Assembly (NCBI GenBank): GCA_964016885.1
Contig: OZ024759.1
Span: 4,898,001 to 4,962,000, forward strand
DNA: 64,000 bases
From: Eledone cirrhosa
Lineage: Eukaryota
Reading direction: 5' to 3'
Both the position numbers and the translations under genes were made by a program. This document shows positions 9,661 through 64,000 of the stretch, one piece after another. The notes below the pieces were generated by a model. That model saw nothing but the letters and a program-made list of their open reading frames with translations, had not been told where the DNA came from and searched no databases. How positions within the stretch are numbered: position 1 is the stretch's first letter; each line of letters opens with the position of its first letter.

Positions 9661-9749
9661 TCACTCACCTAAAATAGTGCCATCAATGTTGTTAATATTT
9701 TGAATAAACCTGTTTTACTAAGAAATTCTCCTTTCATTTTATGTCTGTA

Positions 9750-37190: not shown

Positions 37191-39673
37191 ATAGACATTC
37201 AATGTAGAAGAGAACTGGGAGTTCCTAAAAAATAACTTACTAGAGGCGACGGATGAGGTCTGTGGCTGGAGTAAGACCTCAAGCAGGAGGAGAGTGACTT
37301 GGTGGTGGAACAATAAGGTATATGAGGCAGTTAAGGCCAAGAGACAGGCATGGAAAGAATGGAAGAACGGGGGGAGCAGGGTAAATTACATAGAGAACAA
37401 GAGGGAAGCTAGGCGACAAGTATACTTAGCTAGGAGGGAAGCAGAGGATAGAAAATTCAAGCATGTTTTGCAATGTAAGGACCAGAAACAGGAGGTGTTC
37501 AAGATTGCGAGGCAGTGTGTCAGAGAGAATTGTGATGTCATTGGAGAGAAGTGTATCCGGAATGATAAAGGTGAGCTTGCCCTCACAAGTGCTGAGAAGA
37601 AAGATGCATGGAAGAGTCATTATGATAGATTACTAAATGAGGAGAATGCATGAGAAGAAGAGACCCTACCCCAAGTAGACCCTATAGAGGGGCCAGCAGT
37701 ACAAGTCAGCAGCAGCGTAGTAAGTAAGGCAATCAAAGATATGAAGATGGGGAAGGCAACCGGTCCATCGGGTATAGCTGCTGAGATGCTGAAGGCATCT
37801 GGGTCTGTAGGTCACACTATAACCACACGTATTGTTAACCAGGTAATACTAGAAGGTGTCATACCAAAAGATTGGTGCAGTAGCATTATTGTCAACTGCT
37901 ACAAAGGTAAAGGTGATGCACTAGATAGAGGAAACTATAGAGGTATAAAGCTGATGGACCAGGTCATGAAAGTAACAGAAAGAGTTATAGCACAGTTGAT
38001 TAGGGACCGGGTGAAACTAGATGAGATGCAATTTGGGTTTGTACCAGGAAGAGGCACCACTGATGCCCTCTTCCTTGTGAGGCAGTACAGGAAAAGTACC
38101 TAGCTAAAAGCAAGCCACTCTACCTGCCATTTGTCGATCTCGAGAAAGCCTTTGACAGAGTTCCACGTGCTGTAATCTGATGGGCTCTTAGAAAACTAGG
38201 AGTAGATGAATGGCTTGTGAAAGCGGTACAAGCCATGTATAGGGGAGCAGTCAGCAAAGTTAGGATTAGCAATGAGTATAGCGAGGAATTTAGCGTACAG
38301 GTTGGGGTCCACCAGGGCTCTGTTCTTAGCCCCCTCCTGTTCATCATAGTCATGCAGGCAATAACGGAGGAGTTTAAGACCGGATGCCCATGGGAACTCC
38401 TGTATGCTGATGACCTCGCACTTATAGCTGAATCTATGGTAGAGCTAGAGAAGAAATTCCAAACTTGGAAGCAGGGACTAGAAAGAAAGGGTCTCAAAGT
38501 CAACATGATAAAGACTCAGGTCCTTTTAAGTAGACGAGAAAACAGAACCCAGATCCCCTCAGGGAAATGGCCTTGCTCAGTATGTAGGAAAGGTGTAGGT
38601 AGGAACTCCATTCCCTGCCCCAAATGCAAACAATGGGTACACAAGAGATGTAGCGGGATCTCAGGAAGCTTAATTAAGAATGTAGGCTTCACATGCAGCA
38701 GCTGTGCTGGGACAGCACGCAGCAAAAAGCCACAGGAAACAAGTACCACCAATCTCTCGGAGGGCTCTGTAGAAAGAGTAGACCGCTTCTGCTACCTAGG
38801 TGACCGAATTAGCAGCGGAGGTGGGTGTTCAGAAAGTACAATAACTAGGGTAAGAACGGGATGGAAGAAGCTTAGGGAACTACTACCACTACTAGCTGCA
38901 AAAGGCTTTTCCCTCAAAATGAAAGGCAGACTGTATGATGCGTGTATCCGAACAGCAATGTTGCATGGTAGTGAGACCTGGGCGCTGAAGGTGGAAGACT
39001 TATGTAGATTAGAGAGAAACGAAGCCTTCATGCTCCGATGGATGTGTAACAGTAATATACGCGAACGACAAAGCATAAATGAATTGAGAGAGAGACTGAG
39101 CATAAGAGGAATCAAATGCTGTGTGCAGGAGAGGCAGTTGCGTTGGTATGGACATGTGATGCGTATGAAGGATGACAGCTGCATAAAAAGGTGCAGAGCA
39201 CTAGAAGTCGATGGAAACCGCGGAGTGGGGAGACCCAAGATGACCTGGGATGAGGTGATAAAAACCGACCTTACCCAATTCCACCTCTCAAAGGCGATGA
39301 CACATGACCGTGACCTCTGGCGTCTCGCAGAAATACAGAGTACCCGACCTCCCATGGGTACAAGCTGATGCATATAGACAATAAGCCCCCACACCCCCCA
39401 CTTCAAGGTGGTCGTGGAGGTGCCACGGCAAAAAGCACCCAGCCCACACTGTAAAGTGGACGTGTAGGCAACACGAAAAAGCACCCAGCACTCACTGTAA
39501 ATGAGGTTGGTGTTAGGAAGGGCATCCAGCTGTAGAAATCAAGCCAAATCAGTTCCTGTATGAGCAAAGCATAGTCAGCCGACCAGACACTGCCCACAAC
39601 AGGACAACCCGTCTAACCCATGCTAGCGTGGAAGAACGGACGTAAAACGGTGATGATGATGATGATGATGATG
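37191..39673 (+). mobile_element. 5'-truncated RTE LINE inserted in a piggyBac-type MITE
   Basis: RT motifs GVHQGSVLSP and LYADDL, a Cys-rich insert CSVC..CPKC..HKRC..CSSC, a (GAT)n tail, and ACTC duplicated at 37187-37190 and 39674-39677. The MITE halves rejoin across it. Confidence 0.95.
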
Positions 39674-43937: not shown

Positions 43938-44075
43938 CATTTTGGCAGTTTCTTCCTTCAAAACCAGCAACACATCTTCCGTCAGAACATATTCCTGTCA
44001 CTGAGTCACATTTGTTGCTGTCTACACAGTGACATATACCTTCACAGTTGCTGCCAAATCTACCATTCTGGCAGA
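43938..44075 (-). CDS. EGF-repeat gene exon 8
   Basis: 138 bp: VCQNGRFGSNCEGICHCVDSNKCDSVTGICSDGRCVAGFEGRNCQN; donor GTGAGT. Confidence 0.9.
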
Positions 44076-44360
44076 CTTTCAAAGAAACAAAAACATTGTT
44101 TGTTAATAAAAAAAAAAGCAAACCCTTTTTGGTTCAGAAACTTCTGGCGGAATCCCAGTCTCATATTTTTATATGGTTTGAATATAAATATACTTCTCTA
44201 CCTTTTTTTCATGGAACCCCAGACATTCATTTGCAGAACCCTTGGGTTCCATGGATCCCACTTTGGGAATGACTAATAAAGAACACCCTAAAGTTTGGAG
44301 AGATAAAACAAGAATTCATATATGTTGCACAGAGTAATTAGCTTCTTTCATTTCACTCAC

Positions 44361-44498
44361 CTGTTTGACAGTTGTTACCTTTATAGCCAGGTGTACACCC
44401 ACCACTCGAACAGGTACCAGATTTAGGGTTACACGTGCTATTGTCATAGCAGTGACAGCTATAGCTACAATCTTTACCAAACTTGCCACTGGAGCACT
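44361..44498 (-). CDS. EGF-repeat gene exon 7 (absent from the ORF track)
   Basis: 138 bp: ECSSGKFGKDCSYSCHCYDNSTCNPKSGTCSSGGCTPGYKGNNCQT; donor GTGAGT. Confidence 0.9.
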
Positions 44499-46115
44499 CT
44501 GAAATATAGAGCTATTATTTATTATTTATTCATGAGTGAATAAGAATTGTTTCGACTTTTGACATAAGGCCAGCAATTACCCCAGTGCATTACTGGTACT
44601 TTATTTTATCGACCCCGTAAGGTCGAAAGGCAAAGTTAACCTCTGTGGGATTTGAACTCAGACCGTAAAGAACCATAACTCTATGCTGCAAAGCATGGCA
44701 TCCGACGCTCTACCGATACTGCCAATCCACTACCCTCACGATTCAATAATAATTATTTCTACTTTTTGCACAAGGCTAGCAATTATCCCAGTGTATTACT
44801 GGTACTTTATTAGTAATGCACTGGATAACAATAATGTTATAATAGTATTATAATATCATTAATATTCAGTTTGTTTGCCAGCAAACAGCCTCATAAACAC
44901 CACGTGTGTTTTCTAGATGAACAATGTCATCCTTTTGTTGTAAAAGGGAAAGAAATGGGCAGAACTGTTGGAGTGTTTGTTGGATGAAATGCTTTGCAGA
45001 ACTTCTGAGGTCTGAGTTCAAATCTTGCTCAGGTCAAACTTGAATGTCATTTTTACAAGCTTGATAAAATAATGTACCAGTTAAATACTGGGGTAGATAT
45101 AATCAACTGACTTTCTCTTTACTCCAAAATTAAGAAATCATTATTAACCCTTTACCATTCACATTACTCTATATATACTATTGTGTATTTTCATGGTAAA
45201 GGCTTTATCTCACATAATTATCTCACATAATTATCTCACATAATATCGAATCTATGAGATTTTGAAAGTATTTATTTTGAGAACAATACCTTAACATCAG
45301 TTTGAGCGACCAGTTACAGCCAATATCAACAGAAAGAGGTAGAGAATTCTGGCCGGTTTGGGCCAGTTTGAACACGAAAGGGTTAATTAAAAACATTGGT
45401 ACATTTGTGCTTTACATAGTTTTGGCTTGGTTTTACTGGTTGGGTATTCTTCTTGTAACCAATCACTTTACTGAGTGGCCTGGGTGCACCAGTTCTTGAG
45501 AGGTTGTACTAATTAGGGTGGCACCAAGTGGATACAAAATGTGGGACGAAAAGAAGAGAGAGGAGTCAGTTGAAAATGTCTGAGTGGAGGTGGCATGAAC
45601 CTAGAATACTCCGAGGAACAGAGTCCAATATAGTAGTGGTGGAAAGCAGGAGGAGAAGGCACATGGGGAGAGTATCAGTGAAGAAGAGAAAAAATGGTGT
45701 ATCCATTTGGTTTATAGTCAAGTTTTATTTTTTTTAAACAAGCACCTTTATAGGCTTAGTCGGCCACCTATGAGGTTGTCACCCCATAGGAAGTATTCTG
45801 GGTGTTTCAATGGTAAGGACACCATGTCTATCATGTTGTTGTTACAGCTCACATTTATGTAGGTTTGGCTGGCCCCCTACAAGGATGCACTCCATAGGAA
45901 ATATTCTGGGTGTTTTAATAATAAGGACCCCAGGCCTATCATGTTGTTACAGCTCTACCTATGTAGGTTTAACTGGCCTCTGACAAAAATGCACCCCAAA
46001 GGAGCCTCGGTCTTTTCATGTCACTCTTTCCTTGGTAAGTTTGGAATCTCACTTTGAAGTGCCATGTGCTCACCTAGAAATACAAATAGCATAGAAGATC
46101 TACTGAATGACTCAC

Positions 46116-46253
46116 CTGTCTGACAATTGCTACCTTGATAGCCAGCTTCACAGCCACCACTGGAACATACACCTGTGATGGGGTCACACTTGCTGTTGTT
46201 GGCACAGTGACATGAGTTAATACAGTTGTCACCAAATTTACCACTTCTACACT
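46116..46253 (-). CDS. EGF-repeat gene exon 6
   Basis: 138 bp: CRSGKFGDNCINSCHCANNSKCDPITGVCSSGGCEAGYQGSNCQT; donor GTGAGT. Confidence 0.9.
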
Positions 46254-46294
46254 CTGGGTACATTAAATATGAAGAATATAGAAGTTAGATGGAA

Positions 46295-47020
46295 TGAGAT
46301 GTGAAATGTATGTGATATACAATGTATGAGTTATGAAATGTATGGGATGTGAAATGTAGGAATATGAAATGTAGTGGGTGTAAAATGTAGGGATGTGAAA
46401 TGTAGGTGATGTGAAATGTAGGGATGAGGAATGTAGGAGATGTGAAATGTAGGATATGTGAAATGTAGGATATGTGAACTGTAGTAGATATGAAATGTAA
46501 GAGATGTGAAATGTAAGAGATGTGAAATGTAGGTGATGTGAAATGTAGGATATGTGAAATGTAAGGATGTGAAATGTAGGAGATGTGAAATGTAAGGATG
46601 TGAAATGTAGGAGATGTGAAATGTAAGAGATGTGAAATGTAGGTGATGTGAAATGTAAGAGATGTGAAATGTAGGTGATGTGAAATTTAAGAGATGTGAA
46701 ATGTAGGGATGAGGAATGTAGGAGATGTGAAATGTAGGAGATGTGAAATGTAGGAGATGTGAAATGTAAGAGATGTGAAATGTAAGATATGTGAAATGTA
46801 AGAGATGTGAAATGTAGGAGATGTGAAATGTAAGAGATGTGAAATGTAAGAGATGTGAAATGTAGGTGATGTGAAATGTAAGAGATGTGAAATGTAGGAG
46901 ATGTGAAATGTAGGTGATGTGAAATGTAAGAGATGTGAAATGTAGGATATGTGAAATGTAAAGGTGTGAATTGTATAATGTGAAATATAGATGTGAATTG
47001 TGTGAGATGTGAAATGTAGA
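46295..47020. repeat. 17-bp minisatellite just upstream of the exon 6 acceptor
   Basis: GATGTGAAATGTA(G/A)GA units. Confidence 0.95.
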
Positions 47021-47372
47021 GAATGTACAAGAATAACAGTAAACATCAACAACAACAACAGCAACCATCATCAACAACAATAACATGAATAACAAAAACA
47101 AACAACAATAGCAACAACAAAAACAACAAAAACAATAACAAAATAACAACAGCAAACAAAAATAGCAGTCATCAACAACATCCCTTACATTTTTACCTGT
47201 TCCAGCCATCTGGCAGAGGCCATGCTGGGGCACCGCTCTTGTTGCTACACATTCTATCTCCAGCCTGTGTTGTCTGGCCATTGGTGTAAGAGGGAGTTTG
47301 TTGCTGTTGCCCATCAATAACAAAATAACAACAACAAAACAACAATAGCAACAACAACAAATATATACTTAC

Positions 47373-47510
47373 TTAACTGACAATTGTTACCCTCATATCT
47401 AGCAATACAACCCCCACTTGAACAGGTCCCTGATACTGGGGTACACTTGCTGTTGTCTGTACAGTGACATATACTGCTGCACTTGGCACCAAACCTTCCA
47501 TATTGACAAA
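47373..47510 (-). CDS. EGF-repeat gene exon 5 (absent from the ORF track)
   Basis: 138 bp: VCQYGRFGAKCSSICHCTDNSKCTPVSGTCSSGGCIARYEGNNCQL; donor GTAAGT. Confidence 0.9.
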   Translation of the reverse strand, partial: FVNMEGLVPSAAVYVTVQTTASVPQYQGPVQVGVVLLDMRVTIVS

Positions 47511-47583
47511 CTATGGCAGAAAAAAAAATATATATAATTCCAAAATTAAATTAAGGGTGTCATGTCCGAGAGACATGCGCCAT

Positions 47584-47693
47584 TAAACAACATAAGACAA
47601 TTATTCCATTTACCAAAGGTTTTATGAAGACTGACGAGCTCGTCTGTCTTCGTGAAACCTTTGGTAAATGGAATAATTGTCTTATGTTGTTTA
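47584..47693. repeat. 110-bp spacerless palindrome
   Basis: 55-bp arms centred on GAG|CTC with three mismatched positions. Confidence 0.95.
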
Positions 47694-48269
47694 TTACATA
47701 ACTAAATAGCTCTGTAGCTTACATAGTGCACTCTCCTTTCCTTCGGAAACACTTAATATATATATATGCAGAAGACCTGACTTCCCTAGGGTACAAGCCG
47801 AAGCTGAAGCATATGGAAAATATGCCCCCACCCCCTCCTCCCACTGCAAAGTGGTCGTGGAGGTGTCATGACAAAAAAGCACCCAGCCCACACTGTAAAG
47901 TGGACATGTAGGCGCCACGGTAAAAAAGCACCTAGCACTCACTGTAAATGAGGTTGGTGTTAGGAAGGGCATCCAGCTGTAGAAATCAAGCCAGCATCAG
48001 TTCCCATATGAGCAAGACAAGGTCACTCGACCTGGCATTGCCTACAACAGGACAACCGGTCTAACCCATGGAAGAATGGACGTAAAAGGGTGATGGTGAT
48101 GATATATATTTTTTTCACTAATGTCACACAAAATTGTATGTTTTTTGTAGCTTTATGGTTTAACGGTTTCCTTTTTAAAAATTGTTTTTTTGTTTTGTTT
48201 TGTTTTCGTTCGCTGTCTTCTCTTTTCTTTGTTGATTTTCTTAAATATATATATATATAAATATATGTA

Positions 48270-48306
<37 letters not shown>

Positions 48307-48368
48307 TTTTTTTTTTCTGATTCCACCCTGCCTGTCCCTTCAATCTTTCTAATTTCTCATTCTTTCTT

Positions 48369-48400
48369 CTGATGAAGGACTAGCGTCCAAAACCTTAAAA
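48369..48400 (+). other. Inactivated Penelope-type minimal hammerhead motif
   Basis: CTGATGA-A-GGAC-TAGC-GTCC-AAAAC (core GAAA changed to AAAA) in a pyrimidine-rich context. Confidence 0.45.
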
Positions 48401-49389
48401 CCCTCTTGTTGCTATTTCAAGTGTTAACCTAATATTTTCTTTCCATATACTGTACCGATTGTGTTGTTATCTCTGTTTACACACAATCATCATCATCATC
48501 ATCATCATTTTACGTCCGCCTTTCCCTGCTTGCAAGGGTTGGACGGGTTCTATTCAGCGCAGCATCTCTCCACTTGTCACGGTCCTTCGTCATCTCCTCA
48601 GATTACATTTATTGTATTCAGCCATGTAGAGTGGAAATTTTATTTTATTTGAATGTGGCAAAGCCGGTCATTTATTGCTCGTATACAGGAAACTGACTGG
48701 CCAGTCTGCTGATATACAAATCTGGCTGATCAGTGGATCTGCTAATATGCAGATCTGACTGATCAGCCAGTCTGCTAATATGGAAATCAGGCCGATCAGC
48801 CACTGTATATTTTAGAAAATAGTATATATTTTCACTAGCTCTGACAGTTGGCAGGTGAAGAGTGAGCTGTACTGATGAAGGCTGATACCCAGAAAAATTA
48901 GTGTCTGCAATTCTGTTTACATGCCAACACAAGAGCAAGAATGATGGGTTCATTCTATTGACATGGCTTTAAAATTGAGGCTTGTTTGCATAATTGCAGA
49001 CGAATCGAATGCTATTATTAATATTCGAAAAGGGCGGTAGATTGGCAGTATCGGTAGAGGGTCGGACCATGCTTTGACGCATAAAGTTACGGCCCTTGCT
49101 ATTCTGAGTTCAAATCCCGCTGAGGTTAACTTTGCCTTTCATCCTTATGGGGTCGATAAAATAAAGTACCAGTAATACACTGGGTAATTGCTGGCCTTGT
49201 GCCAAAAGTAGAAACAATTATTAATATTCGAAAAACTCAGATTACATATATATATAGAGATATATATATATGGCTTAAAAGAGAAGATGAATGGTGTGTC
49301 TGACACATTGAGGTTGATGGAGACACCTTGCTGAGAGTCATAACACCAGACACTTCAAATTTCATGCTGTTCTGATGCATTGAGATGGA

Positions 49390-49600
49390 ACAGCTGCTAC
49401 CTTTATAACCAGCACCACACCCTCCATTGGAACACACACCTGTCTGACAGTTGCTACTTCCACAACCAGCACCACATCTTCCGCTGGAACACATACCTGT
49501 CTGACAGTTGATACCTTTATAATCAGCACCACACATTCTACTATAACACACACCTGTCTCTGTGTTACACCTGTCTCTGTGTTACACCTACTGTCATCTT
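49390..49600 (-). repeat. Partial EGF exon duplicate with three in-frame 57-bp repeats
   Basis: ACCTGT at 49438, 49495 and 49552; reads CGADYKGINCQTGMCSSGRCGAGCGSSNCQTGVCSNGGCGAGYKGSSC. Confidence 0.85.
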
Positions 49601-49646
49601 GTTTCAATATATTAAGTTACAAACAAAGCTATACTACACCACTTAC

Positions 49647-49784
49647 CTGTCTGACAGTTGCTACCTTCATAACCAGCAGCACATCCGCCACTAAAATACA
49701 CACCTGTCTGTTTGTTACACCTGTTGTTGTCAGTACAGTGACAGATGCTTTCGCAGTTGGGTCCAAATTTACCAATATCACAAA
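49647..49784 (-). CDS. EGF-repeat gene exon 4 (one Cys replaced by Tyr)
   Basis: 138 bp: VCDIGKFGPNCESICHCTDNNRCNKQTGVYFSGGCAAGYEGSNCQT; donor GTAAGT. Confidence 0.85.
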
Positions 49785-49854
49785 CTAAACATACAAAAAA
49801 AATAGATAAACAAATTCTGAAGAAGTCACGGCTGTTCCACATTTCTAGTCACTG

Positions 49855-50800
49855 TACTATTGTAACTAGTACTCTACTAACTACCACTATACTAACTATT
49901 GTAACTAGTACTCTACTAACTACTACTACATCATTCACTATACTAACTATTGTAACTAGTACTCTACTAACTACCACTATACCATTCACTATACTAACTA
50001 TTGTAACTAGTACTCTATTAACTACCACTACATCATTCACTATACTAACTATTGTAACTAGTACTCTACTAACTACCACTATACCATTCACTATACTAAC
50101 TATTGTAACTAGTACTCTACTAACTACCACTACATCATTCACTATACTAACTATTGTAACTAGTACTCTACTAACTACCACTATACCATTCACTATACTA
50201 ACTATTGTAACTAGTACTCTACTAACTACCACTACATCATTCACTATACTAACTATTGTAACTAGTACTCTACTAACTACCACTATACCATTCACTATAC
50301 TAACTATTGTAACTAGTACTCTACTAACTACCACTATACCATTCACTATACTAACTATTGTAACTAGTACTCTACTAACTACCACTACATCATTCACTAT
50401 ACTAACTATTGTAACTAGTACTCTACTAACTACCACTACATCATTCACTATACTAACTATTGTAACTAGTACTCTACTAATTACCACTATACCAATCACT
50501 ATACTAACTATTGTAACTAGTACTCTACTAACTACCACTACATCATTCACTATACTAACTATTGTAACTAGTACTCTACTAACTACCACTATACCATTCA
50601 CTATACTAACTACCACTACATCATTCACTATACTAACTATTGTAACTAGTACTCTACTAACTACTACTACATCATTCATTATACTAACTATTGTAACTAG
50701 TACTCTACTAACTACTACTAAATCATTCACTATACTAACTATTGTAACTAGTACGCTACTAACTACCACTATACCATTCACTATACTATTATAACTACCA
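49855..50800. repeat. 51-bp minisatellite, about 18 copies, with two alternating variants
   Basis: ACTATTGTAACTAGTACTCTACTAACTACCACTA(TAC/CAT)CATTCACTATACTA. Confidence 0.95.
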
Positions 50801-51015
50801 CTCTGTAGTAGTAGTAGTGGCACTCCATCGGTTACGATGAGTGTTCCAACTGATACAATCAACAGTACAACCTGCTCGTGAAATTTACATGCAAGTGGCT
50901 GAGTATTCCACAAACACGCGTACCCATAATATAGTTCTCAGGGAGATTCAGCAAGACACAATATGTGACAAGGCTAGCATTTCGAATTACAGGTACAGTT
51001 CATTTTTGCCAGCTG

Positions 51016-52547
51016 AGTGGACTGGAGCAACATGAAATAAAGTGTCTTGCTCAAGGACACAGTGGACTGGAGCAACATGAAATAAAGTGTCTTGCTCAAG
51101 GACACAGTGGACTGGAGCAACATGAAATAAAGTGTCTTGCTCAAGGACACAGTGGACTGAAGCAACATGAAATAAAGTGTCTTGCTCAAGGACACAGTGG
51201 ACTGGAGCAACATGAAATAAGGTGTCTTGCTCAAGGACACAGTGGACTGGAGCAACATGAAATAAGGTGTCTTGCTCAAGGACACAGTGGACTGGAGCAA
51301 CATGAAATAAAGTGTCTTGCTCAAGGACACAGTGGACTGGAGCAACATGAAATAAAGTGTCTTGCTCAAGGACACAGTGGACTGGAGCAACATGAAATAA
51401 AGTGTCTTGCTCAAGGACACAGTGGACTGGAGCAACATGAAATAAAGTGTCTTGCTCAAGGACACAGTGGACTGGAGCAACATGAAATAAAGTGTCTTGC
51501 TCAAGGACACAGTGGACTGGAGCAACATGAAATAAAGTGTCTTGCTCAAGGACACAGTGGACTGGAGCAACATGAAATAAAGTGTCTTGCTCAAGGACAC
51601 AGTGGACTGGAGCAACATGAAATAAAGTGTCTTGCTCAAGGACACAGTGGACTGGAGCAACATGAAATAAAGTGTCTTGCTCAAGGACACAGTGGACTGG
51701 AGCAACATGAAATAAGGTGTCTTGCTCAAGGACACAGTGGACTGGAGCAACATGAAATAAAGTGTCTTGCTCAAGGACACAGTGGACTGGAGCAACATGA
51801 AATAAGGTGTCTTGCTCAAGGACACAGTGGACTGGAGCAACATGAAATAAAGTGTCTTGCTCAAGGACACAGTGGACTAGAGCAACATGAAATAAAGTTT
51901 CTTGCTCAAGGACACAGTGGACTGGAGCAACATGAAATAAAGTGTCTTGCTCAAGGACACAGTGGACTGGAGCAACATGAAATAAAGTGTCTTGCTCAAG
52001 GACACAGTGGACTGGAGCAACATGAAATAAAGTGTCTTGCTCAAGGACACAGTGGACTAGAGCAACATGAAATAAAGTGTCTTGCTCAAGGACACAGTGG
52101 ACTGGAGCAACATGAAATAAAGTGTCTTGCTCAAGGACACAGTGGACTGGAGCAACATGAAATAAAGTGTCTTGCTCAAGGACACAGTGGACTGGAGCAA
52201 CATGAAATAAAGTGTCTTGCTCAAGGACACAGTGGACTGGAGCAACATGAAATAAAGTGTCTTGCTCAAGGACACAGTGGACTGGAGCAACATGAAATAA
52301 AGTGTCTTGCTCAAGGACACAGTGGACTGGAGCAACATGAAATAAAGTGTCTTGCTCAAGGACACAGTGGACTGGAGCAACGCGAAATAAAGTGTCTTGC
52401 TCAAGGACACAGTGGACTGGAGCAACATGAAATAAGGTGTCTTGCTCAAGGACACAGTGGACTGGAGCAACATGAAATAAAGTGTCTTGCTCAAGGACAC
52501 AGTGGACTGGAGCAACATGAAATAAAGTGTCTTGCTCAAGGACACAA
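51016..52547 (-). repeat. 45-bp array, about 34 copies, expanded inside a family A SINE
   Basis: Unit AGTGGACTGGAGCAACATGAAATAAAGTGTCTTGCTCAAGGACAC. SINE head at 52547-52622 and SINE tail at 50810-51016. Confidence 0.95.
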
Positions 52548-52709
52548 TGTACTGCTGGGAATTGAACTCGTGACCTTACAATCTTAAGCCGAATACCCTA
52601 ACTACGAAGCCACGTGCTTCACTCCACTCTACCGCTCTACTAACTACCACTACACCATTCATTATACTAACTATTATAACTACCACTCTACTAGTAATAT
52701 TTATGAGTA

Positions 52710-53020
52710 ATATTAACTAATTATATTAACTAATTATATTGACTAATTATATTAACTAATTATATAGACTAATTATATTAACTAATTATATTGACTAATT
52801 ATATAGACTAATTATATTAACTAATTATATTGACTAATTATATTGACTAATTATATTGACTAATTATATTGACTAATAATATTGACTAATTATATTGACT
52901 AATTATATTGACTAATAATATTGACTAATTATATTGACTAATAATATTGACTAATAATATTGACTAATTATATTGACTAATTATATTGACTAATAATATT
53001 GACTAATTATATGAACTAAT
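52710..53020. repeat. 14-bp minisatellite
   Basis: TATATTGACTAATT-type units. Confidence 0.9.
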
Positions 53021-53204
53021 AATTGTTTCTACGTAAGGCACAAGGCCAGCAATTACACAGTACATTACTGGTACTTTATTTTATCGACCCCGTAAGGATG
53101 AAAGGCAAAGTCAACCTCGGCGGGATTTGAACTCAGATCGTAAAGGGACGTAACTGGGTTCAAATCCTACTGAAGTTATAGCTCTGGCTTTCATCCTAAC
53201 AAGG

Positions 53205-53382
53205 TTGATAAAGTAAAGTACCAGTAACGTACTGGGGTTGATAAAGTAAAGTACCAGTAATGTACTGGGGTTGATAAAGTAAAGTACCAGTAACGTACTG
53301 GGGTTGATAAAGTAAAGTACCAGTAATGTACTGGGGTTGATAAAGTACCAGTAACGTACTGGGGTTGATAAAATAAAGTACC
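53205..53382 (+). repeat. 33-bp-class short array from the family B SINE core, about 5 copies
   Basis: Repeated GGGGTTGATAAAGTAAAGTACCAGTAACGTACT following a SINE head at about 53155-53205. Confidence 0.8.
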
Positions 53383-53425
53383 TGGACTGGTGAGAGATAA
53401 AAGCTGAGATATGAAAATAACTAAC

Positions 53426-53563
53426 CTTTCTGACAACTGTTTCCTTCATAACCTGGAGCACATCTACCCCTTGAACAGATCCCTAATTCCACATTACACC
53501 TGTTGTTATCTTCACAATGACACACCTGATCACAGTTGGCACCAAGTCTTCCACTACTGCACA
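53426..53563 (-). CDS. EGF-repeat gene exon 3
   Basis: 138 bp: VCSSGRLGANCDQVCHCEDNNRCNVELGICSRGRCAPGYEGNSCQK; donor GTTAGT. Confidence 0.9.
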
Positions 53564-53590
53564 CTGTAACAGGAAAACATTGGTGTAGAT

Positions 53591-54317
53591 CAGGGATTGG
53601 CAACTTCTTTGCCTCCACGGGCCGGACGAATGCCATAAAAGAATAATTATGGAAAATTACACAAGCTAAAATTTAATCTCGAGTGTTGACTATACTATTC
53701 ATTTCTCAAATCTTGAATTATATTCACAAATACCTCTGAATCCTGTGATTTCCCTCCTTGAAATGATGGAAAATGCACAATTTTTATTTCAAAGTTGATG
53801 TTCCCACAACTGTAGCTTTTTTTCAAAGACAACAATATGGTTATACATTTCATTTACGAGCTGAGTTTTACCTTGAAGTTGTAAATTTAAGTTATTTAAC
53901 CCTTTAGCACTTACATTATTCTATATTTACTATTGTAGTTTCACAGTAAACACTTTATCTTATATAGTTATCTCACATAATATTGAATCTATGAGATTTT
54001 GATATTATTTATTTTGAGAAGAATACCTTAACGTCAGTATGAGTGGCTAGTTACAGCCGGTTTGAACAGAAAAAAGTGAGAGATTTCTGGCCGGATATGG
54101 CCGGTTTAAATGCTAAAGGGTTAAACGAGTCACAATATCCTCAATAAATACCAAAGTTGTAACAGCAGGCCTTTTATTGTATTCGAAAGGCTCGTCTCTC
54201 ATGTTACAATAAATTTAAATTTTAAATAAACAACTCATTGGGCATAAGTTCTTGCAGGCTGGTCGAAATCCTTTCCTGAGCTGGACCGGCCTGTGCGCCA
54301 TAAGTAGCCAACCCCTG
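53591..54317. mobile_element. hAT-like MITE containing a nested piggyBac-type MITE
   Basis: CAGGGATTGGCAACTT ... AAGTAGCCAACCCCTG termini; nested TTAA element at 53896-54124. Confidence 0.6.
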
Positions 54318-54435
54318 CTGTAGGGTAATGTCTTGTGATGGTAATGGTGGTACTGGTGGTAGTAGTGGGAATATTGCACCGGACAATTCTCGTTTCATTT
54401 TCTTCCAATTTTCTCTGTTGCTCCATGTTCATCAC

Positions 54436-55925
54436 TCATGTCTCACTCCTATAAATCATGTCACTTCTAACACATGTAGCAAACATCTTTCCCTTCCATG
54501 TCTCACTCCTATAAATCATATCACTTCTAACACATGTAGCAAACATCTTTCCCTTCCATGTCTCACTCCTATAAATCATATTACTTTTAACACATGTAGC
54601 AAACATCTTTCCCTTCCATGTCTCACTCCTATAAATCATGTCACTTCTAACACATGTAGCAAACATCTTTCCCTTCCATGTCTCACTCCTATAAATCATA
54701 TCACTTCTAACACATGTAGCAAACATCTTTCCCTTCCATGTCTCACTCCTATAAATCATGTCACTTCTAACACATGTAGCAAACATCTTTCCCTTCCATG
54801 TCTCACTCCTATAAATCATGTCACTTCTAACACATGTAGCAAACATCTTTCCCTTCCATGTCTCACTCCTATAAATCATATCACTTCTAACACATGTAGC
54901 AAACATCTTTCCCTTCCATGTCTCACTCCTATAAATCATGTCACTTCTAACATATGTAGCAAACATCTTTCCCTTCCATGTCTCACTCCTATAAATCATG
55001 TCACTTCTAACACATGTAGCAAACATCTTTCCCTTCATGTCTCACTCCTATAAATCATGTCACTTCTAACATATGTAGCAAACATCTTTCCCTTCCATGT
55101 CTCACTCCTATAAATCATGTCACTTCTAACACATGTAGCAAACATCTTTCCCTTCCATGTCTCACTCCTATAAATCATGTCACTTCTAACACATGTAGCA
55201 AACATATTTCCCTTCCATGCCTCACTCCTATAAATTATGTCACTTCTAACACATGTAGCAAACATCTTTCCCTTCCATGTCTCACTCCTATAAATCATGT
55301 CACTTCTAACACATGTAGCAAACATCTTTCCCTTCCATGTCTCACTCCTATAAATCATGTCACTTCTAACATATGTAGCAAACATCTTTCCCTTCCATGC
55401 CTCACTCCTATAAATCATGTCACTTCTAACACATGTAGCAAACATCTTTCCCTTCCATGTCTCACTCCTATAAATCATGTCACTTCTAACACATGTAGCA
55501 AACATCTTTCCCTTCCATGTCTCACTCCTATAAATCATGTCACTTCTAACACATGTAGCAAACATCTTTCCCTTCCATGTCTCACTCCTATAAATCATGT
55601 CACTTCTAACATATGTAGCAAACATCTTTCCCTTCCATGCCTCACTCCTATAAATCATGTCACTTCTAACACATGTAGCAAACATCTTTCCCTTCCATGT
55701 CTCACTCCTATAAATCATGTCACTTCTAACACATGTAGCAAACATCTTTCCCTTCCATGTCTCACTCCTATAAATCATGTCACTTCTAACACATGAAGCA
55801 AACATCTTTCCCTTCCATGTCTCACTCCTATAAATCATGTCACTTCTAACACATGTAGCAAACATCTTTCCCTTCCATGTCTCACTCCTATAAATTATGT
55901 CTCTTTTTAAGCATGTATCATACAT
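54436..55925 (-). repeat. 60-bp array, about 24 copies, derived from RTE RT coding sequence
   Basis: The unit translates KGKMFATCVRSDMIYRSETW versus RTE KGRLYDACIRTAMLHGSETW. Single-copy versions at about 56710-56830 and 57630-57695. Confidence 0.9.
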
Positions 55926-55989
55926 ATCTCTCCTCCATGTGATGTCTCAATATATTATTTTAGAAACAAAGCTACACTACACCACTTAC

Positions 55990-56127
55990 CTGTCTGACAG
56001 TTGCTACCTTCATAACCAGCAGCACATCCGCCACTAGAACACACACCTGTCTGTTTGTTACACCTGCTGTTATCTGCACAGTGACATGTATATTTACAGT
56101 TGGGTCCAAATTTACCTGTTTTACACC
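55990..56127 (-). CDS. EGF-repeat gene exon 2 (absent from the ORF track)
   Basis: 138 bp: GCKTGKFGPNCKYTCHCADNSRCNKQTGVCSSGGCAAGYEGSNCQT; acceptor TTTTCAG, donor GTAAGT. Confidence 0.9.
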
Positions 56128-56319
56128 CTGAAAATAAAATATGAAAGTCTAAATATATTTATTAATTTACATTAATTTCTGATAGTTTCATATTTTACAT
56201 GGCGGACATTATCAGAGTTTTTGATGAACAGTATGGTTTTCATCCTGGACGTAGCAGAGCTGCATGATTAAATAATTAGCTCGAAACCAGTATCACACTG
56301 ATGATGACATCATATCACC

Positions 56320-56501
56320 TGCTGATGATGTTTCTCATGGATAAGATGAAAGCTTTTTCACAAATGGGATCCTAGCACTGCAACACCAATGGAGAAAGGG
56401 TGTGGACCGCAGGGGGGACTATTTGCAAAAATAAACCTCATTTGGTCACATTGCATGAGAGTAACTTGTTCAACCTAAGAACTATTCAGAAGAGCCTTGT
56501 A
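56320..56501 (+). mobile_element. mariner transposase C-terminal fragment with 3' end
   Basis: DESFFTNGILALQHQWRKGVDRRGDY-like translation, ending ...CCTTG-TA. Confidence 0.65.
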
Positions 56502-56514
56502 TTACACCACTTAG

Positions 56515-56651
56515 CTGTCTGACAGTTGCTACCTTCATAACCAGCAGCACATCCTCCACTGGAACACACACCTGTCTGTTTGTTACACCTGTTGTTGTCA
56601 GCACAGTGACAAATATTGCCATAGTTGGGCCAAATTTACCTGTTTTACACC
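56515..56651 (-). pseudogene. Dead duplicate of exon 2
   Basis: 137 bp (1-bp deletion), one Cys to Tyr change, and donor GTAAGT mutated to CTAAGT. Confidence 0.85.
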
Positions 56652-56903
56652 CTGAAAATAAAAATATGGAATGTTCTGCATGAGTAAGGGGTTAATGGAC
56701 AGCTTCTTGCTCCTATAAATCATGTCACCTCTAACACATGTAGCATACATCTTGCCTTTCCATTCTCTTCAGCTTCTCCTGTAGCTCCATCTTCATCACT
56801 CAGTATGTAGCATATATCTTTCCCTTCCATGCGATGCAAACTTGTTACAAACATTTTCTTTCCATGCGATGTCCCAATATACTAAGTTACAAACAAAGCT
56901 TAC

Positions 56904-57023
56904 CTGTCTGACAGTTGCTACCTTCATAACCAGCAGCACATCCTCCACTGGAACACACACCTGCTGTTGTCAGAACAGTGACATGTGTTGCCACAGTTGG
57001 GTCCAATTTACCTGTTTTACACC
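56904..57023 (-). CDS. Exon 2 duplicate with compensating 1-bp and 17-bp deletions (in-frame, 120 bp); may be a pseudo-exon
   Basis: GCKTGKLDPTVATHVTVLTTAGVCSSGGCAAGYEGSNCQT; acceptor TTTTCAG and donor GTAAGC are intact. Confidence 0.45.
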
Positions 57024-57229
57024 CTGAAAATAAAATATGGAAGTCTAAATATATTTGACAATTCACATTAATTTCTGATAGTCTCATATTTTAAATGGTG
57101 GACATTATCCTAATTCTGTAAAATTGAGATAAGAAAGATTGCTCCAATTAAAGAAGGAACTCCTTGTTAAACCTTCCTGATAAAGTTTATGATAAATGTC
57201 TGACAAAGAGAGATTGTTGTGTTCAAGTT

Positions 57230-57430
57230 AGCTGATGGACAATGTGGTTTTACCCTGGATGCAGTAAAGCTGACCAAATATTCACAGTGAGGTAGGTCTT
57301 TGATAAATCATGGGATTACTGCCAAGAGATGTATTCCTGTTTTGCAGACATCAAAAAGGCTTATGACAGTATTTTACAGGATCAGATGTGGAATGTTCTG
57401 AATGACTATGGGGTCGATGGACACATCCCG
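57230..57430 (+). mobile_element. LINE RT fragment
   Basis: QCGF... and FADIKKAYDSILQDQMWNVLNDYGVDG. Confidence 0.7.
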
Positions 57431-57745
57431 GCTCCAATAAATTAGTCATCCCCATTTTTCCTCAACACATGATCCAGCATATCCTTTCATTTCTCTTCAT
57501 AAATATTATTGACACTATTTACATCAATCTCTGCAAAATATTGATTTCCTGCCTCTTTCATGGGGATATTTCACCGGACCATTCTCATTTCAAGTCTCCT
57601 CTGCTTTCTCTGTTGTTCCATCTTCATCAATCATGTCTCACTCTTAAAAATAATGTCACTTCTAACACATGTAGCATACATTTTTCCCTTCCATGTGATG
57701 TCTCAATATATTAAGTTAGAAACCAAGCTATACTACACCACTTAC

Positions 57746-58948
57746 CTGTCTGACAGTTTCTATCTTCATAACCAGCACCACACCTGTCTGACAGTTGCTA
57801 CCTTCATAACCAGCACCACACCTGTCTGACAGTTGCTACCTTCATAACCAGCACCACACCTGTCTGACAGTTGTTACCTTTATAACCAGCACCACACCTG
57901 TCTGACAGTTTCTATCTTCATAACCAGCACCACACCTGTCTGACAGTTGCTACCTTCATAACCAGCACCACGCCTGTCTGACAGTTGCTACCTTCATAAC
58001 CAGCACCACACCTGTCTGACAGTTGTTACCTTTATAACCAGCACCACACCTGTCTGACAGTTGCTACCTTCATAACCAACACCACACCTGTCTGACAGTT
58101 GTTACCTTCATAACCAGCACCACACCTGTCTGACAGTTGCTACCTTCATAACCAGCACCACACCTGTCTGACAGTTGTTACCTTTATAACCAGCACCACA
58201 CCTGTCTGACAGTTGTTACCTTCATAACCAGCACCACACCTGTCTGACAGTTGTTACCTTTATAACCAGCACCACACCTGTCTGACAGTTGCTACCTTCA
58301 TAACCAACACCACACCTGTCTGACAGTTGTTACCTTTATAACCAGCACCACACCTGTCTGACAGTTGCTACCTTCATAACCAGCACCACACCTGTCTGAC
58401 AGTTGTTACCTTCATAACCAGCACCACACCTGTCTGACAGTTGTTACCTTTATAACCAGCACCACACCTGTCTGACAGTTGTTACCTTCATAACCAGCAC
58501 CACACCTGTCTGACAGTTGTTACCTTTATAACCAGCACCACACCTGTCTGACAGTTGTTACCTTCATAACCAGCACCACACCTGTCTGACAGTTGTTACC
58601 TTTATAACCAGCACCACACCTGTCTGACAGTTGTTACCTTCATAACCAGCACCACACCTGTCTGACAGTTGTTACCTTTATAACCAGCACCACACCTGTC
58701 TGACAGTTGCTACCTTCATAACCAGCACCACACCTGTCTGACAGTTGCTATCTTCATAACCAGCACCACACCTGTCTGACAGCTGATACCTTTATAACAA
58801 GCACCACACCTCCACTACAACACACACCTGTCTGACAGCTGATACCTTTATAACTAGCACCACACCTCCACTACAACACACACCTGTCTGACAGTTGATA
58901 CCTTTATAACAAGCATCACACCTCCATTACAACACCCACCTGTCTGAC
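57746..58948 (-). repeat. Exon-end-derived array: about 27 x 38 bp plus 3 x 56 bp
   Basis: 38-bp unit TGGTGCTGGTTATGAAGGTAGCAACTGTCAGACAGGTG (GAGYEGSNCQT plus GT). The array ends in an authentic ACAG|GTAAGT donor at 57746. Confidence 0.95.
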
Positions 58949-58959
58949 ACCTGTCTGTT

Positions 58960-59135
58960 TCCATTACTCCTCTCACAGAGTCACTTTCATCCATCCTCAA
59001 CACATGACCCAACCATCTCACACCATTTCTTTTCACAACATTCATCAGTCGTCCTATCCCCATCATCCTTTTTAAATCATCTTTCAGCAGCCCTCAACTA
59101 ATCCACTCGATCATTCTCATTTCCATTCTTTCCAT
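58960..59135 (-). mobile_element. LINE 3' ORF fragment
   Basis: NGVRWLGHVLRMDESDSVRGVM. Confidence 0.7.
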
Positions 59136-60512
59136 AATTATTTAAATCTTGTGACTTAAATATTTTTCATATTTCAAAATAATCAATTAAACTTTAAATT
59201 GATTTTAAAAAGGTTTTTTTTCTTTACTTTTTAAAATATTTATTGAAGTGAAATATTAATTTCTAACATAATCACATGACTTGACATTTGAAGTGATGGG
59301 GTGGGGGCTTAAAGTAATACTACCTAGTATTTTACTGGTACTTAATTAATCAACCCTGACAGTAGTGATGGATAAACCATTAAGCAAAATAATCACATGT
59401 TTAGGGTAACAAGGGAAAAGGGGTAAATTTTAATTAAATTAAACATATTTTTCATTCTGTCAACACCTTCCATCCAATTTTCTTCCAGAAGTTATTTATG
59501 AGGTGAGGGGTGGTGGGGGATGCACACCATCATCCTTAACCCTTTAGTATTTACATTACCCTATAAATACTATTATATTTTCACGGTAAGGGCTTTATCT
59601 CTCATAATTATCTCGCATAATATTGAATCTATGAGATTTTGATATTATTTATTTTGAGAACAATACCTTGCTTTGCGGCACAGAGTTACTGCCCTTTGCG
59701 TTCTGAGTTCAAAACCCGCTGAGGTTTGCTTTGCCTTTCATCCTTACGGGGTCGATAAAATAAAGTACCAGTCACGCACTGGGGTCAATTAAATCGACTT
59801 TCCCCTGAAGTAAAAATTTCAATCTACACTTCGACAATGCTGTTTATTTTAACCCTTTAGTATTTACATTACTCTGTATTTACTATTATATTTTCACAGT
59901 AAAGTCTTGTGGAGACACTGCACCCTTTAAAACCTCCATGCTTCCTGAGATTCGCCAACACTGCACCTAATATTCCCCCTCCATACACGCGCACATATGT
60001 ATATCATGACTCACACTATTCACTTCCCTGACATTTGTATAAAATAAAGTACCAGTAATGTACTGGGTAATTTGCTGGCCTTGTGCCAAATGTAAAAACA
60101 ATAATATTGAATCTATGAAATGTTTATATTATTTATTTAGAGAACAATACCTTCACATCGATATGCTAAAGGGTTAAACTTGTTAGGGCTTCAAAAGAAC
60201 TTTATGAGACCCTGCACAGAAAAGTGAAAGACAAAGTCAACCATGGCAAGATTTGAACTCAGAATAGAATGGTGGTGGTGGTGGTAGTGGTGGTAGTGGT
60301 GTTAGTGGCAGTGGTGGCTGGTGGTGGTGGTTGGTAGTGGTTGTGGAGGTGGTGGGGTTGTGGGTGAGGTGGTGGTGGTTGCAGTGGGAGTTGTGGTGGT
60401 TGATAGTGATGTTGGGTAGTGGTTGCGGTTGTGGTTGTGGTAGTGGTGGTAGTAGTGATGATGATGATAATAACAATGATGATATTTATGATGATGATAG
60501 TACACCACTTAC

Positions 60513-60650
60513 CTGTCTGACAGTTGCCACCTTCATATCCAGGAGCACATCCTCCATTAGAGCAGCTACCAGTCTGTGGCTTACATTTACTCTTGTCAGC
60601 ACAATGACACATGTTTCGACAGTTTGGTCCAAATTTTCCTCTCTTACATC
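60513..60650 (-). CDS. EGF-repeat gene exon 1 in window
   Basis: 138 bp: CKRGKFGPNCRNMCHCADKSKCKPQTGSCSNGGCAPGYEGGNCQT; acceptor GATTTGTAG, donor GTAAGT. Confidence 0.9.
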
Positions 60651-62020
60651 CTACAAATCAATCAATAACAAATATATATTTTGGTGTGTATTTGTGTGGC
60701 CTTGTGGTAAGGGTGTTGGACTTACAATCATAATGTCGTGAGTTCTATTCCTCAACTAGGTTGTGTGTTGTGTTCTTGAGCAAAAGTATTTCCATTCATG
60801 TTGCTCCAGTATAATAATAATTGTTTCTACTTTTGACACAAGGCCAGCAATTACCCAGTACATTACTGGTACTTTATTTTATCGACCCCGTAAGGATGAA
60901 AGGCAAAGTTAACCTTGGTGGGATTTGAACTCAGATCATAAAGGGACGTAACTCTATGCTTCAAAGCATGGCGTCCGACTCTCTACCAATACTGACAATC
61001 CACCGCTCCAGTATAATAATAATAATAGTGAAATTATTGTGTACAGTGCTCAGGTGCACTATAAATCATCAAAGGTGCATGTAAAGCACATAGAATAATG
61101 AACAAATGTCAGGAAAATGAACAGTGTATGAGTCATGATAAACATATGTACGTGTGTATGGAGGAGGGATATCAGGTGTAGTGTTGGCGAATTTCAGGAA
61201 GCTTGGAGATCAGTGCCAGTAATAGCTGGTGATTTAACCTTGGGATGGACTGGTGCCCTGTCCAGGGGAAGTTTTGTATTTTAAGTCACTTCATGCCATA
61301 GATAGCACTGGCCTGATGACCCTCAGCACTCGAGACACACTTTAGACATTTTTTTGTTTTTGTATATTCAACAGCCCAGTCCTTCTAACTGTCAGTAGGT
61401 ATCACACTGAGCAGAGTCCACTGTATTCCCCACACCTGGACAGGATGCTAGTCCATTGCATGGTATTTCACTGCTATATTATTCTATCTACTCCAAAAGT
61501 ATGACAGAAAAAGTTGATTTTGGTGGGATTTGAATACCGTTTTAAAAAAGAACTCAAAATCACAACCCATTAAAACCTTTAGAATTAAAACCGGTTATAT
61601 CCGGCCGGAATTCTCACACTTCTTTCTGTTCAAACCAGCCATAACTGGCTGCTCATACTTATGTTAAGGTATTGTTCTCAAAATAGATATTATCAAAATC
61701 TCATAGATTTGATATTATGTGAGATAATTATATGAGATAAAGCCTTTACTGTGAAAATATAATAGTGTATATGAAGTAGTGTAAATGCTAAAGGGTTAAT
61801 CTGTAACTCTACTGCCCCTGCTACTCACATCTTCCTCATGATCAACATTTAACATTCACTTCCCCTGTAACCAAGAGTGGGATGTGTCAACAGAGACCGA
61901 CTCAGAACTTAATCGGAGCTACTGACCTCTCAGATGTTACTGATACATTTCATCATGACTGAAGAGGACATTCATCCATTTGTCTGGTAGATTCTCTAAA
62001 GAAATAGAACTACAAAAGAG

Positions 62021-64000
62021 CACACACGTGTCTGACAGGTGCTACCTTATAACCAGGACCACACCATCTACTGTAACACACCTGTCTGATAGGTGATACC
62101 TTATAACCAGGACCACACCATCTACTGTAACACACCTGTCTGACAGGTGCTACCTTATAACCAGGACCACACCATCTACTGTAACACACCTGTCTGATAG
62201 ATGATACCTTATAACCAGGACCACACCATCTACTGGAACACACCTGTCTGACAGGTGCTACCTTATAACCAGGACCACACCATCTACTGTAACACACCTG
62301 TCTGATAGATGATACCTTATAACCAGGACCACACCATCTACTGTAACACACATGTCTGACAGGTGCTACCTTATAACCAGGACCACATCATCTACTGTAA
62401 CACACCTGTCTGATAGATGATACCTTATAAACAGGACCACACCATCTACTGTAACACACCTGTCTGACAGGTGCTACCTTATAACCAGGATCACACCATC
62501 TACTGTAACACACCTGTCTGACAGGTGCTACCATATAACCAGTAGCACACCATCTACTGGAACACACGTGTCTGACAGGTGCTACCTTATAACCAGGACC
62601 ACACCATCTACTGTAACACACCTGTCTGACAGGTGCTACCTTATAACCAGGACCAGACCTTCTACTGTAACACACCTGTCTGACAGGTGCTACCTTATAA
62701 CCAGGACCACACCATCTACTGTAACACACCTGTCTGACAGGTGCTACCTTATAACCAGGACCACACCATCTACTGTATCACACATGTCTGATAGCTGCTA
62801 CCTTATAACCAGGACCACACCATCTACTGTAACACACCTGTCTGACAGCTGCTACCATATAACCAGGACCACACCATCTACTGTAACACACCTGTCTGAT
62901 AGATGATACCTTATAACCAGGACCACACCATCTACTGTAACACACCTGTCTGACAGGTGCTACCTTATAACCAGGACCACACCTTCTACTGTAACACACC
63001 TGTCTGACAGGTGCTACCTTATAACCAGGACCACACCATCTACTGTAACACACCTATCTGACAGGTGCTACCTTATAACCAGGACCACACCTTCTACTGT
63101 AACACACCTGTCTGACAGGTGCTACCTTATAACCAGGACCACACCATCTTCTGTAACACACCTGTCTGACAGCTGCTACCATATAACCAGGACCACACCA
63201 TCTACTGTAACACACCTGTCTGATAGCTCCTACCTTATAACCAGGACCACACTATCTACTGTAACACACTTGTCTGACAGGTGCTACCTTATAACCAGGA
63301 CCACACCATCTACTGTAACACACCTGTCTGATAGATGATACCTTATAACCAGGACCACACCATCTACTGGAACACACCTGTCTGACAGGTGCTACCTTAT
63401 AACCAGGACCACACCATCTACTGTAACACACCTGTCTGATAGATGATACCTTATAACCAGGACCACACCATCTACTGTAACACACATGTCTGACAGGTGC
63501 TACCTTATAACCAGGACCACATCATCTACTGTAACACACCTGTCTGATAGATGATACCTTATAAACAGGACCACACCATCTACTGTAACACACCTGTCTG
63601 ACAGGTGCTACCATATAACCAGGATCACACCATCTACTGTAACACACCTGTCTGACAGCTGCTACCATATAACCAGTACCACACCATCTACTGGAACACA
63701 CGTGTCTGACAGGTGCTACCTTATAACCAGGACCACACCATCTACTGTAACACACCTGTCTGACAGCTGCTACCTTATAACCAGGACCACACCATCTACT
63801 GGAACACACCTGTCTGACAGGTGCTACCTTATAACCAGGACCACACCATCTACTGTAACACACCTGTCTGATAGATGATACCTTATAACCAGGACCACAC
63901 CATCTACTGGAACACACCTGTCTGACAGGTGCTACCTTATAACCAGGACCACACCATCTACTGTAACACACCTGTCTGATAGATGATACCTTATAACCAG
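62021..64000 (-). repeat. Exon-end-derived 54-bp array, more than 36 copies, running off the window
   Basis: Unit TGTTACAGTAGATGGTGTGGTCCTGGTTATAAGGTAGCACCTGTCAGACAGGTG, homologous to the exon segment CSSGGCAPGYEGSNCQTG. Confidence 0.95.

Follow-up and report, generated by a model that had tools for sequence, protein, structure and literature searches.

Results and Discussion

The EGF gene at the locus

The window, that is, the whole 64-kb stretch of DNA analysed here, carries on its minus strand 11 intact exons of 138 nt (60650 to 34254), all with AG and GT ends and in phase 1, and each corresponds to one 46-residue EGF-like module. The exons align with each other and have the tandem 8-cysteine organisation of such modules, and a profile built from them gave a clam protein named MEGF10 as best match (E 5.3e-107). 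The top matches among the at least 120 listed are mostly from molluscs and lancelets, and the listed proteins include ones named MEGF10/11-like, draper, PEAR1 and EGF-bearing receptor phosphatases; no cephalopod protein was present among the 120 profile matches listed. The Pfam EGF matches of the exons fall below the Pfam cut-offs. A tblastn comparison with 120 listed homologues gave LINE matches and no non-EGF exon of the host gene within the 64-kb window. Over all pairs of intact EGF exons pN was 0.30 and pS 0.69, which would fit past purifying selection. Judged from the profile matches, the host is likely a MEGF10-like multi-EGF gene. Three of its exons are needed for what follows.

60513..60650, minus strand: EGF exon 1, intact, 138 nt, upstream of the focal array
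55990..56127, minus strand: EGF exon 2, intact, 138 nt, with CAGACAGGT twice, 57 bp apart
49647..49784, minus strand: EGF exon 4, intact, 138 nt, with CAGACAGGT twice, 57 bp apart

The double occurrence of CAGACAGGT at 57-bp spacing in exons 2 and 4 had been pointed out in a preliminary description of this DNA and is borne out by the sequence. As a chance event this 9-bp repeat is unremarkable, since a repeat of at least 9 bp turned up in 438 of 2000 sequences obtained by shuffling the codons of exon 2. The internal CAG/GTGTGT of both exons matches the donor in frame and phase, and its use would remove 19 residues. Exon 4 has, in addition, one conserved cysteine changed from C to Y.

Anatomy of the focal array

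The focal array is about 1.2 kb long (57746-58950) and, as an array, lies far beyond chance. TRF reported a period of 38 at 57744-58811 (28.1 copies, 95% matches, score 1905) and a period of 56 at 58767-58953 (3.3 copies), and head-to-tail units of 38 and 56 bp are within the unit size of approximately 10-100 bp given for minisatellites. When the minus strand is cut at CAG/G, the array reads as an 11-bp unit (58950-58940), three 56-mers (58939-58772) and 27 38-mers (58771-57746), and then GTAAGT. In the direction of transcription the features are as follows.

58971..59135, minus strand: decayed RTE-like LINE fragment with RWLGHVLRM motif, in place of the acceptor and 5' half of the exon
58940..58960, minus strand: array head, in which the 11-bp unit is preceded by 10 nt from the exon-internal repeat (codons K-Q-T)
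58772..58939, minus strand: three 56-bp units, corresponding to the 57-nt interval at the exon's 3' end with a 1-bp gap and 7-8 substitutions
57746..58771, minus strand: 27 tandem 38-bp units in 7 variants and a patterned order, each unit a 5-nt GTGTG head plus the exon's last 33 nt
57740..57745, minus strand: lone full-consensus donor GTAAGT that closes the array; its exon copy is without acceptor
57561..57745, minus strand: intron behind the array, 84-85% identical to the intron behind exon 2, with one copy of a 60-mer inside an RTE-like LINE remnant

The last unit and the intron that follows it align with the end of exon 4 (92.8% over 83 nt) and with that of exon 2 (91.8% over 85 nt), in agreement with the preliminary statement that the array terminates in a true CAG/GTAAGT donor and the intron sequence common to these two exons. 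At the opposite end, LINE remnant sequence starts ten bases upstream of the first array junction, and the acceptor and 5' half of the exon copy are absent. The match of this LINE fragment to the window's own reverse-transcriptase ORF, which itself matches RVT_1, is weak taken alone (tblastn E 0.022). The direct repeat CAGACAG/GT is found at both ends of the array (58957-58949 and 57752-57744).

All units align within the last 57 nt of the exon and contain no intron sequence. The 31 non-terminal junctions comprise 26 CAG/GTGTGG, 2 GTGTGT and 3 others (GTGGG, GTGTC and GCGTG), and CAG/GT is present at 30 of them; the earlier claim that every unit carries CAG/GTGTG thus holds for 28 of the 31. 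The intronic bases +3 to +6 of the terminal donor occur only once in the array. Since the units consist of the exon side of the donor and, from +1 onward, of the exon-internal copy, it is the exon-internal site that has been multiplied and not the splice donor of the exon, as had been proposed. A coding role of the array is ruled out by the 18 stops found in each frame of the 38-mer part.

Other copies of the half-exon and the duplicated block around exon 2

The same EGF half-exon is amplified at three places within 15 kb. The two sister arrays are:

49390..49600, minus strand: half-exon copy about 47 nt behind the donor of exon 4, with a 17-bp duplication and then 2.7 57-bp units (49390-49553); without terminal donor
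62028..64000, minus strand: at least 36 54-bp units from the same half-exon as the focal array, running off the window; without terminal donor

In the former, the second 57-bp unit begins with CAG/GTATGT. The latter shows higher-order block repeats and open-frame stretches of 125-158 codons.

In addition, the block around exon 2 has been locally duplicated, and two damaged exon copies and one half copy have resulted.

56904..57023, minus strand: damaged exon copy of 120 nt with a 1-bp and a 17-bp deletion, intact splice sites, net frame kept and no stop
56515..56651, minus strand: dead exon copy of 137 nt with a frameshift and the donor GT changed to CT
54437..55940, minus strand: intronic array of 25 60-bp units in the duplicated block's sister copy, derived from a LINE remnant; no donor motif seen by eye

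The deletions in the 120-nt copy (56904-57023) sum to 18, and this copy could be spliced in with a frameshifted middle that lacks four cysteines. The duplicated block provides an internal control: behind exon 2 the 60-mer has been amplified to 25 copies and the exon is intact; in the block of the focal array there is one 60-mer, and it is the exon half that has multiplied. The LINE remnant upstream of the array was considered as a recent duplicate of the one downstream; the two are related (score 112.5, shuffle maximum 81) and too diverged to show this.

History of the repeat unit

We consider the focal array to be an intronic minisatellite derived from the 3' half of a duplicate EGF exon without acceptor, likely born by microhomology slippage and likely neutral for splicing, and assign this reading a probability of roughly 80%, based on the sequence. 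It would have started in an exon copy that is no longer intact in the window, with a 57-bp tandem duplication between the two occurrences of CAGACAGGT there. The 57-bp seed would then have been carried to three places and amplified separately, giving units of 57 bp, of 56 and 38 bp, and of 54 bp. At the focal locus a deletion of 18 or 19 bp, from one GTGTG repeat to another, may have shortened a unit with an exon-like body, after which the 38-mer could expand by slippage or unequal exchange. The CAG/GT at the junctions would reflect nothing more than the position of the breakpoints within that repeat, and the spliceosome, meeting no exon start ahead of the array, would presumably remove it along with the intron.

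The rearrangements seen all lie at GGTGT-type repeats of the exon, i.e. the 57-bp duplication, the 18/19-bp deletion, the 17-bp duplication at 49550-49589 and the 17-bp deletion in the copy at 56904-57023, and no match of the unit in the 64 kb lies outside 44000-64000, where all of them are in or next to EGF exons. The part of the preliminary description that placed the origin locally, in the 3' half of the EGF exon and by way of short direct repeats, is therefore supported. A shared seed is indicated by a derived G at column 25 of the 57-nt interval, which is present in every 38-mer, in two of three 56-mers, in each of the three 57-mers and in the two most frequent variants of the 54-mer, and in none of the 11 intact exons or the two damaged copies. 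Because this base is found in the arrays and in no exon, the arrays likely share a seed that is related to exons 2 and 4 and is not one of these exons. Amplification at three places within 15 kb could mean more than chance, and the shared seed explains it as well.

The preliminary description went further and arranged the unit lengths in a linear series, in place, from the exon 57-mer to the 56-mer and on to the 38-mer, with the surviving 56-mers as true intermediates. The 56-mers do differ from the exon-2 interval by a 1-bp gap, as that series has it, and by 7-8 substitutions as well, which it left out. They directly adjoin the 38-mers, and they contain the 7-bp microhomology AGGTGTG in perfect copies 18 bp apart, compared with 4-6 bp in the 57-mers; the proposed derivation of the 38-mer from a 56-mer by loss of 18 bp has its microhomology in place to this extent. 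However, the same 38-mer layout is obtained in two ways, by an 18-bp deletion in a 56-mer or by a 19-bp deletion in a 57-mer. The mismatches of the seven 38-mer variants are 3, 1, 2, 2, 3, 2 and 2 to the exon-2 interval minus 19 bp, against 3, 4, 4, 5, 6, 5 and 5 to the closest 56-mer minus 18 bp. For six of the seven variants (18 of the 27 units) the exon is consequently a better match than any of the surviving 56-mers, and one of these variants has a single mismatch to the exon and at least four to the 56-mers. The commonest variant, which makes up 9 of the 27 units, has TATAAA in common with the 56-mers and stands at a distance of 3 from both, and a lost, less diverged 56-mer could have served as template. 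We regard the linear series as rather unlikely, and as it was written the chain is unsupported by the mismatches of the 38-mer variants. The order of the 57, 56 and 38 steps is not readable from the sequence, because the deletion takes out the very base that separates 56 from 57. A template of 56 type would be favoured by the longer microhomology and the adjacency, and an exon-like body by the sequence of the units. The simplest history may be that an exon-like unit beside the donor was shortened and then expanded, in which case the surviving 56-mers would be older sisters of the 38-mers. The variant order of the 38-mers, FBACACACACBADACABCDABGEABBE, with its dimer and block repeats and its distinct edge units, is consistent with ordinary repeat turnover and resembles what is described for the 'mirage' clusters of amphioxus (PMC3087553).

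Donor-like sites and splicing

The preliminary description counted about 30 tandem donor-like sites and left it open whether they act as decoy or alternative donors or are neutral debris. The sites are present. With a matrix made from the 11 donors of the gene, which are related (paralogous) sites and serve as a guide only, the terminal site scored 14.3, CAG/GTGTGT (exon-internal, in units 2 and 3 of the 56-mers and in the 54-mer) 9.7, and CAG/GTGTGG of the 38-mer 4.5. Real donors scored 3.2-14.2 in leave-one-out. The 56- and 54-mer sites thus fall inside the real-donor range, and the 38-mer site is below 10 of the 11 real donors and reaches the 98th percentile when ranked among 1026 GT sites of introns. 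By the number of U1 pairs over 11 positions, real and internal sites are indistinguishable and only the 38-mer stands apart (6.5 vs 7-9.5). Going by these scores, the array sites are donor-like sites that appear weakened by the shortening of the unit, and the commonest unit, the 38-mer, has the weakest site of the series.

A role in splicing would mean that the roughly 70 CAG/GT-type junctions of the three arrays (32 in the focal array, 37 in the 54-mer array and 2-3 among the 57-mers) attract U1 as decoys, or that splicing starts from them as alternative or recursive donors, and that they tune the inclusion of EGF exons in this way. The number of junctions, the real-donor-like score of CAG/GTGTGT and the percentile of the 38-mer site are all compatible with such a role, and precedents exist in man: in the available text of PMC1557585 pseudo-donors of IFI6 and CBS are partly used, the nearest ones being those chosen, and the part of PMC2812944 at hand describes minisatellites at exon-intron boundaries that make new introns in duplicated genes. 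Yet the focal array has neither an acceptor nor an exon 5' half in front of it. Of the AG sites upstream, the best two are at distances of 1077 and 1261 nt, and all six top candidates have at least three stops whichever frame is read, although a cryptic acceptor is conceivable given a noisy acceptor matrix (leave-one-out -12 to 17.8). The most amplified focal unit has the weakest site, and the -1 G is lost at 6 of the 37 54-mer junctions. Donor-free arrays in the window are as large as donor-bearing ones, and in F7, according to the same portion of PMC1557585, a change in repeat number left splicing unchanged. We therefore hold an effect of the arrays on splicing to be very unlikely; of the two options in the preliminary description, neutral debris describes the focal array better than the decoy role. 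The unit junctions were also considered as acceptors, with an intron of the type described by Rogers inside the array, and this was rejected, as they scored at the 11th-64th percentile of background; the pyrimidine share before them (0.18-0.41 vs 0.59-1.0) makes them poor acceptors.

One further scenario, which we would call a long shot, is a self-masking duplication. As the internal CAGACAGGT agrees with the donor in frame and phase, duplication of the 57 bp within a live exon would place a usable CAG/GTGTGT at the normal exon end; arrays could then start and grow in working exons with no damage to the protein, while exon ends turn into intron. Throughout the EGF family, the U1 sites amassed in this way, in banks of differing length, might bias the inclusion of EGF modules and diversify a putative receptor. 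Should RNA show that the arrays alter splicing in the EGF family, their importance would be larger, and any paralogues that have an intact exon start and splice from the junction donor would show intron gain by tandem duplication in progress.

Contigs of sequencing runs

For 55945-57830, a stretch which includes only the last two array units, nine runs were listed, of contig or RAD-seq type and none recorded as RNA, and contigs of four of them were compared. Those of runs X1 and X4 cover these two units and show the second variant at 57798. Run X5, from another study, has 0 differences over 57586-57784 and ends short of the tandem junction. The X1 contigs contain two intron-to-half-exon junction forms, further versions of the one behind exon 4, which are absent from the window and joined to EGF-gene intron sequence, from which we infer that similar half-exon duplications may exist at paralogous loci or in other alleles. 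An X1 joint reaching back 55 bases was at first taken as a sign of paralogous arrays and then dropped, as the window's own 56-mers could produce it.

In run X4, the kind of which is not recorded, two contigs join an exon end to an exon start like spliced transcripts, with downstream exons that exactly match none of the 11 exon starts of the window; for the joint whose upstream side is given, the 31 nt there are too short to decide between the donor of an exon and a junction of the 38-mers. Among the 15 of 19 and 12 of 15 joint-table rows listed, none starts from 57746.

The junction forms of X1 also bear on the idea that the unit is a dispersed satellite, or the passenger of a mobile element, that was inserted and not born here. 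They point to related structures elsewhere, the array head abuts a LINE remnant, and there are three separate arrays, all of which speak for such an insertion. Against this, the unit is EGF coding sequence that continues uninterrupted into a real donor and its intron, its matches in the window are confined to the EGF exons and their surroundings as given above, and the extra X1 junctions are likewise joined to EGF-gene intron. We give insertion even less weight than an effect on splicing. An assembly artefact is barely credible: no contig of the compared runs spans the array stretch, but the seven variants stand in a patterned order, and the X1, X4 and X5 contigs agree with the assembled end of the array as described.

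Relation to published minisatellites

The birth of a minisatellite between direct repeats of 5-10 bp is an established model of Haber and Louis (1998), as described in the accessible part of PMC3389668, and tandem duplications mediated by microhomology mostly behave neutrally according to the text seen of PMC13167724. The array resembles this type in having a single-copy progenitor with a flanking 9-bp direct repeat, the repeat at both array ends and later changes on short repeats. The progenitor is represented here through CAGACAGGT at 57-bp spacing in exons 2 and 4, which are close relatives of the progenitor and not the progenitor itself. The differences are that the progenitor is a coding exon, that the downstream repeat overlaps a splice donor and that several unit lengths have come from one seed within 15 kb.

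Donor-repeating minisatellites are reported from human F7 intron 7 (37 bp), IFI6/6-16, CBS intron 13, LMNB2 and PDGF (available text of PMC1557585; others as cited there). In these human donor VNTRs only the first site, or the nearest two or three, is used, and the unchanged splicing in F7 refers to a deletion of repeats (same text). The focal array is similar in its unit size and in its tens of tandem donor-like sites in the pre-mRNA. As far as that text describes it, the first F7 unit spans the boundary of a live exon, whereas here the true donor is at the last unit and acceptor and 5' half are missing; and the F7 pseudo-sites are identical to the real donor and downstream of it, in contrast to one GTAAGT at the end of an otherwise GTGTG-type series.

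A further parallel is provided by the 'mirage' minisatellites of amphioxus, in Adh3, the globins BflGb6/BflGb9, troponin C and PGBD5, for which no disturbance of splicing is reported (PMC3087553, PMC3902484, in the portions available). These too are invertebrate intragenic repeats that derive from the ends of exons; most of their units contain splice signals, and the edge units are unlike the interior (PMC3087553), and an AG/GT signal in most units is what we find at 30 of the 31 junctions. The mirage units, as these portions present them, span the boundary and contain intron, whereas those of the focal array are wholly exonic and come from a broken duplicate exon. In human segmental duplications, variable internal tandem repeats occur and boundary minisatellites can create introns (PMC2812944, available part); expansion of minisatellites at exon ends in recently duplicated gene parts is common to both systems. 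The human cases described there have transcript-supported new introns or longer proteins, and the focal array is non-coding and known from DNA sequence. The general kind of arrangement is thus already in print (PMC1557585, PMC3087553 and PMC2812944, each as far as its text was available), although the author of the preliminary description had not seen it described. In the literature searched, with most subscription papers outside it, we found no exon-derived array of exactly this layout and no cephalopod minisatellite cases. The value of the locus is mainly that of a teaching case of minisatellite birth, as progenitor, seed repeat and unit lengths of 57, 56, 54 and 38 bp are found inside 15 kb, beside a sister block in which the intron is amplified.

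Other repeats in the window

From 100 TRF rows 14 minisatellites with periods of 13-61 bp were chosen, excluding microsatellites, zinc-finger repeats and arrays of fewer than approximately 5 copies. They amount to 12,660 bp or 19.8% of the window, and 10 of them make up 32.9% of the gene span, which suggests that one fifth of the stretch is minisatellite from local sequence. Single-copy sources other than exons are present in the window for four: LINE remnants for the 61-mer (at 5358) and the 60-mer, and dispersed repeats, which we take to be SINE-like, for the 45- and 33-mers. Two of the remaining chosen arrays derive from the EGF exon, and the rest have neighbouring matches or none.

The 60-bp and 61-bp minisatellites at 54437-55940 and 5358-6765 come from RTE-like LINE remnants, and the 60-mer translates as a repeat of a 20-residue reverse-transcriptase tail. 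The arrays from dispersed repeats are at 51016-52554 (45 bp, 34 copies) and 53203-53382 (33 bp, 5.6 copies), the former with open frames of more than 500 codons on both strands. A layout of few long and many short units like that of the focal array is seen in an unrelated, non-exon array at 18986-19742, with 2.9 copies of 65 bp and then 12.1 copies of 52 bp.

Broken LINEs are found at 28886-31368 (minus strand) and 37195-39368 (plus strand), the second lying in an intron of the EGF gene and having an RVT_1 and a PHD-finger match. Long ORFs interrupted by stops are present at 23034-27482 on the minus strand, presumably with Helitron-like replicase and helicase motifs. On the plus strand, 8851-9700 is a frameshifted C2H2 zinc-finger array similar to Octopus zinc-finger proteins, and a motif in it makes a modest case for an octopod host. 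The motif YHCD[IV]C of this remnant (8851-9192), which we assume to be octopus-typical, occurs at least twice in 5 of the 120 listed matches, all five of which are named Octopus.
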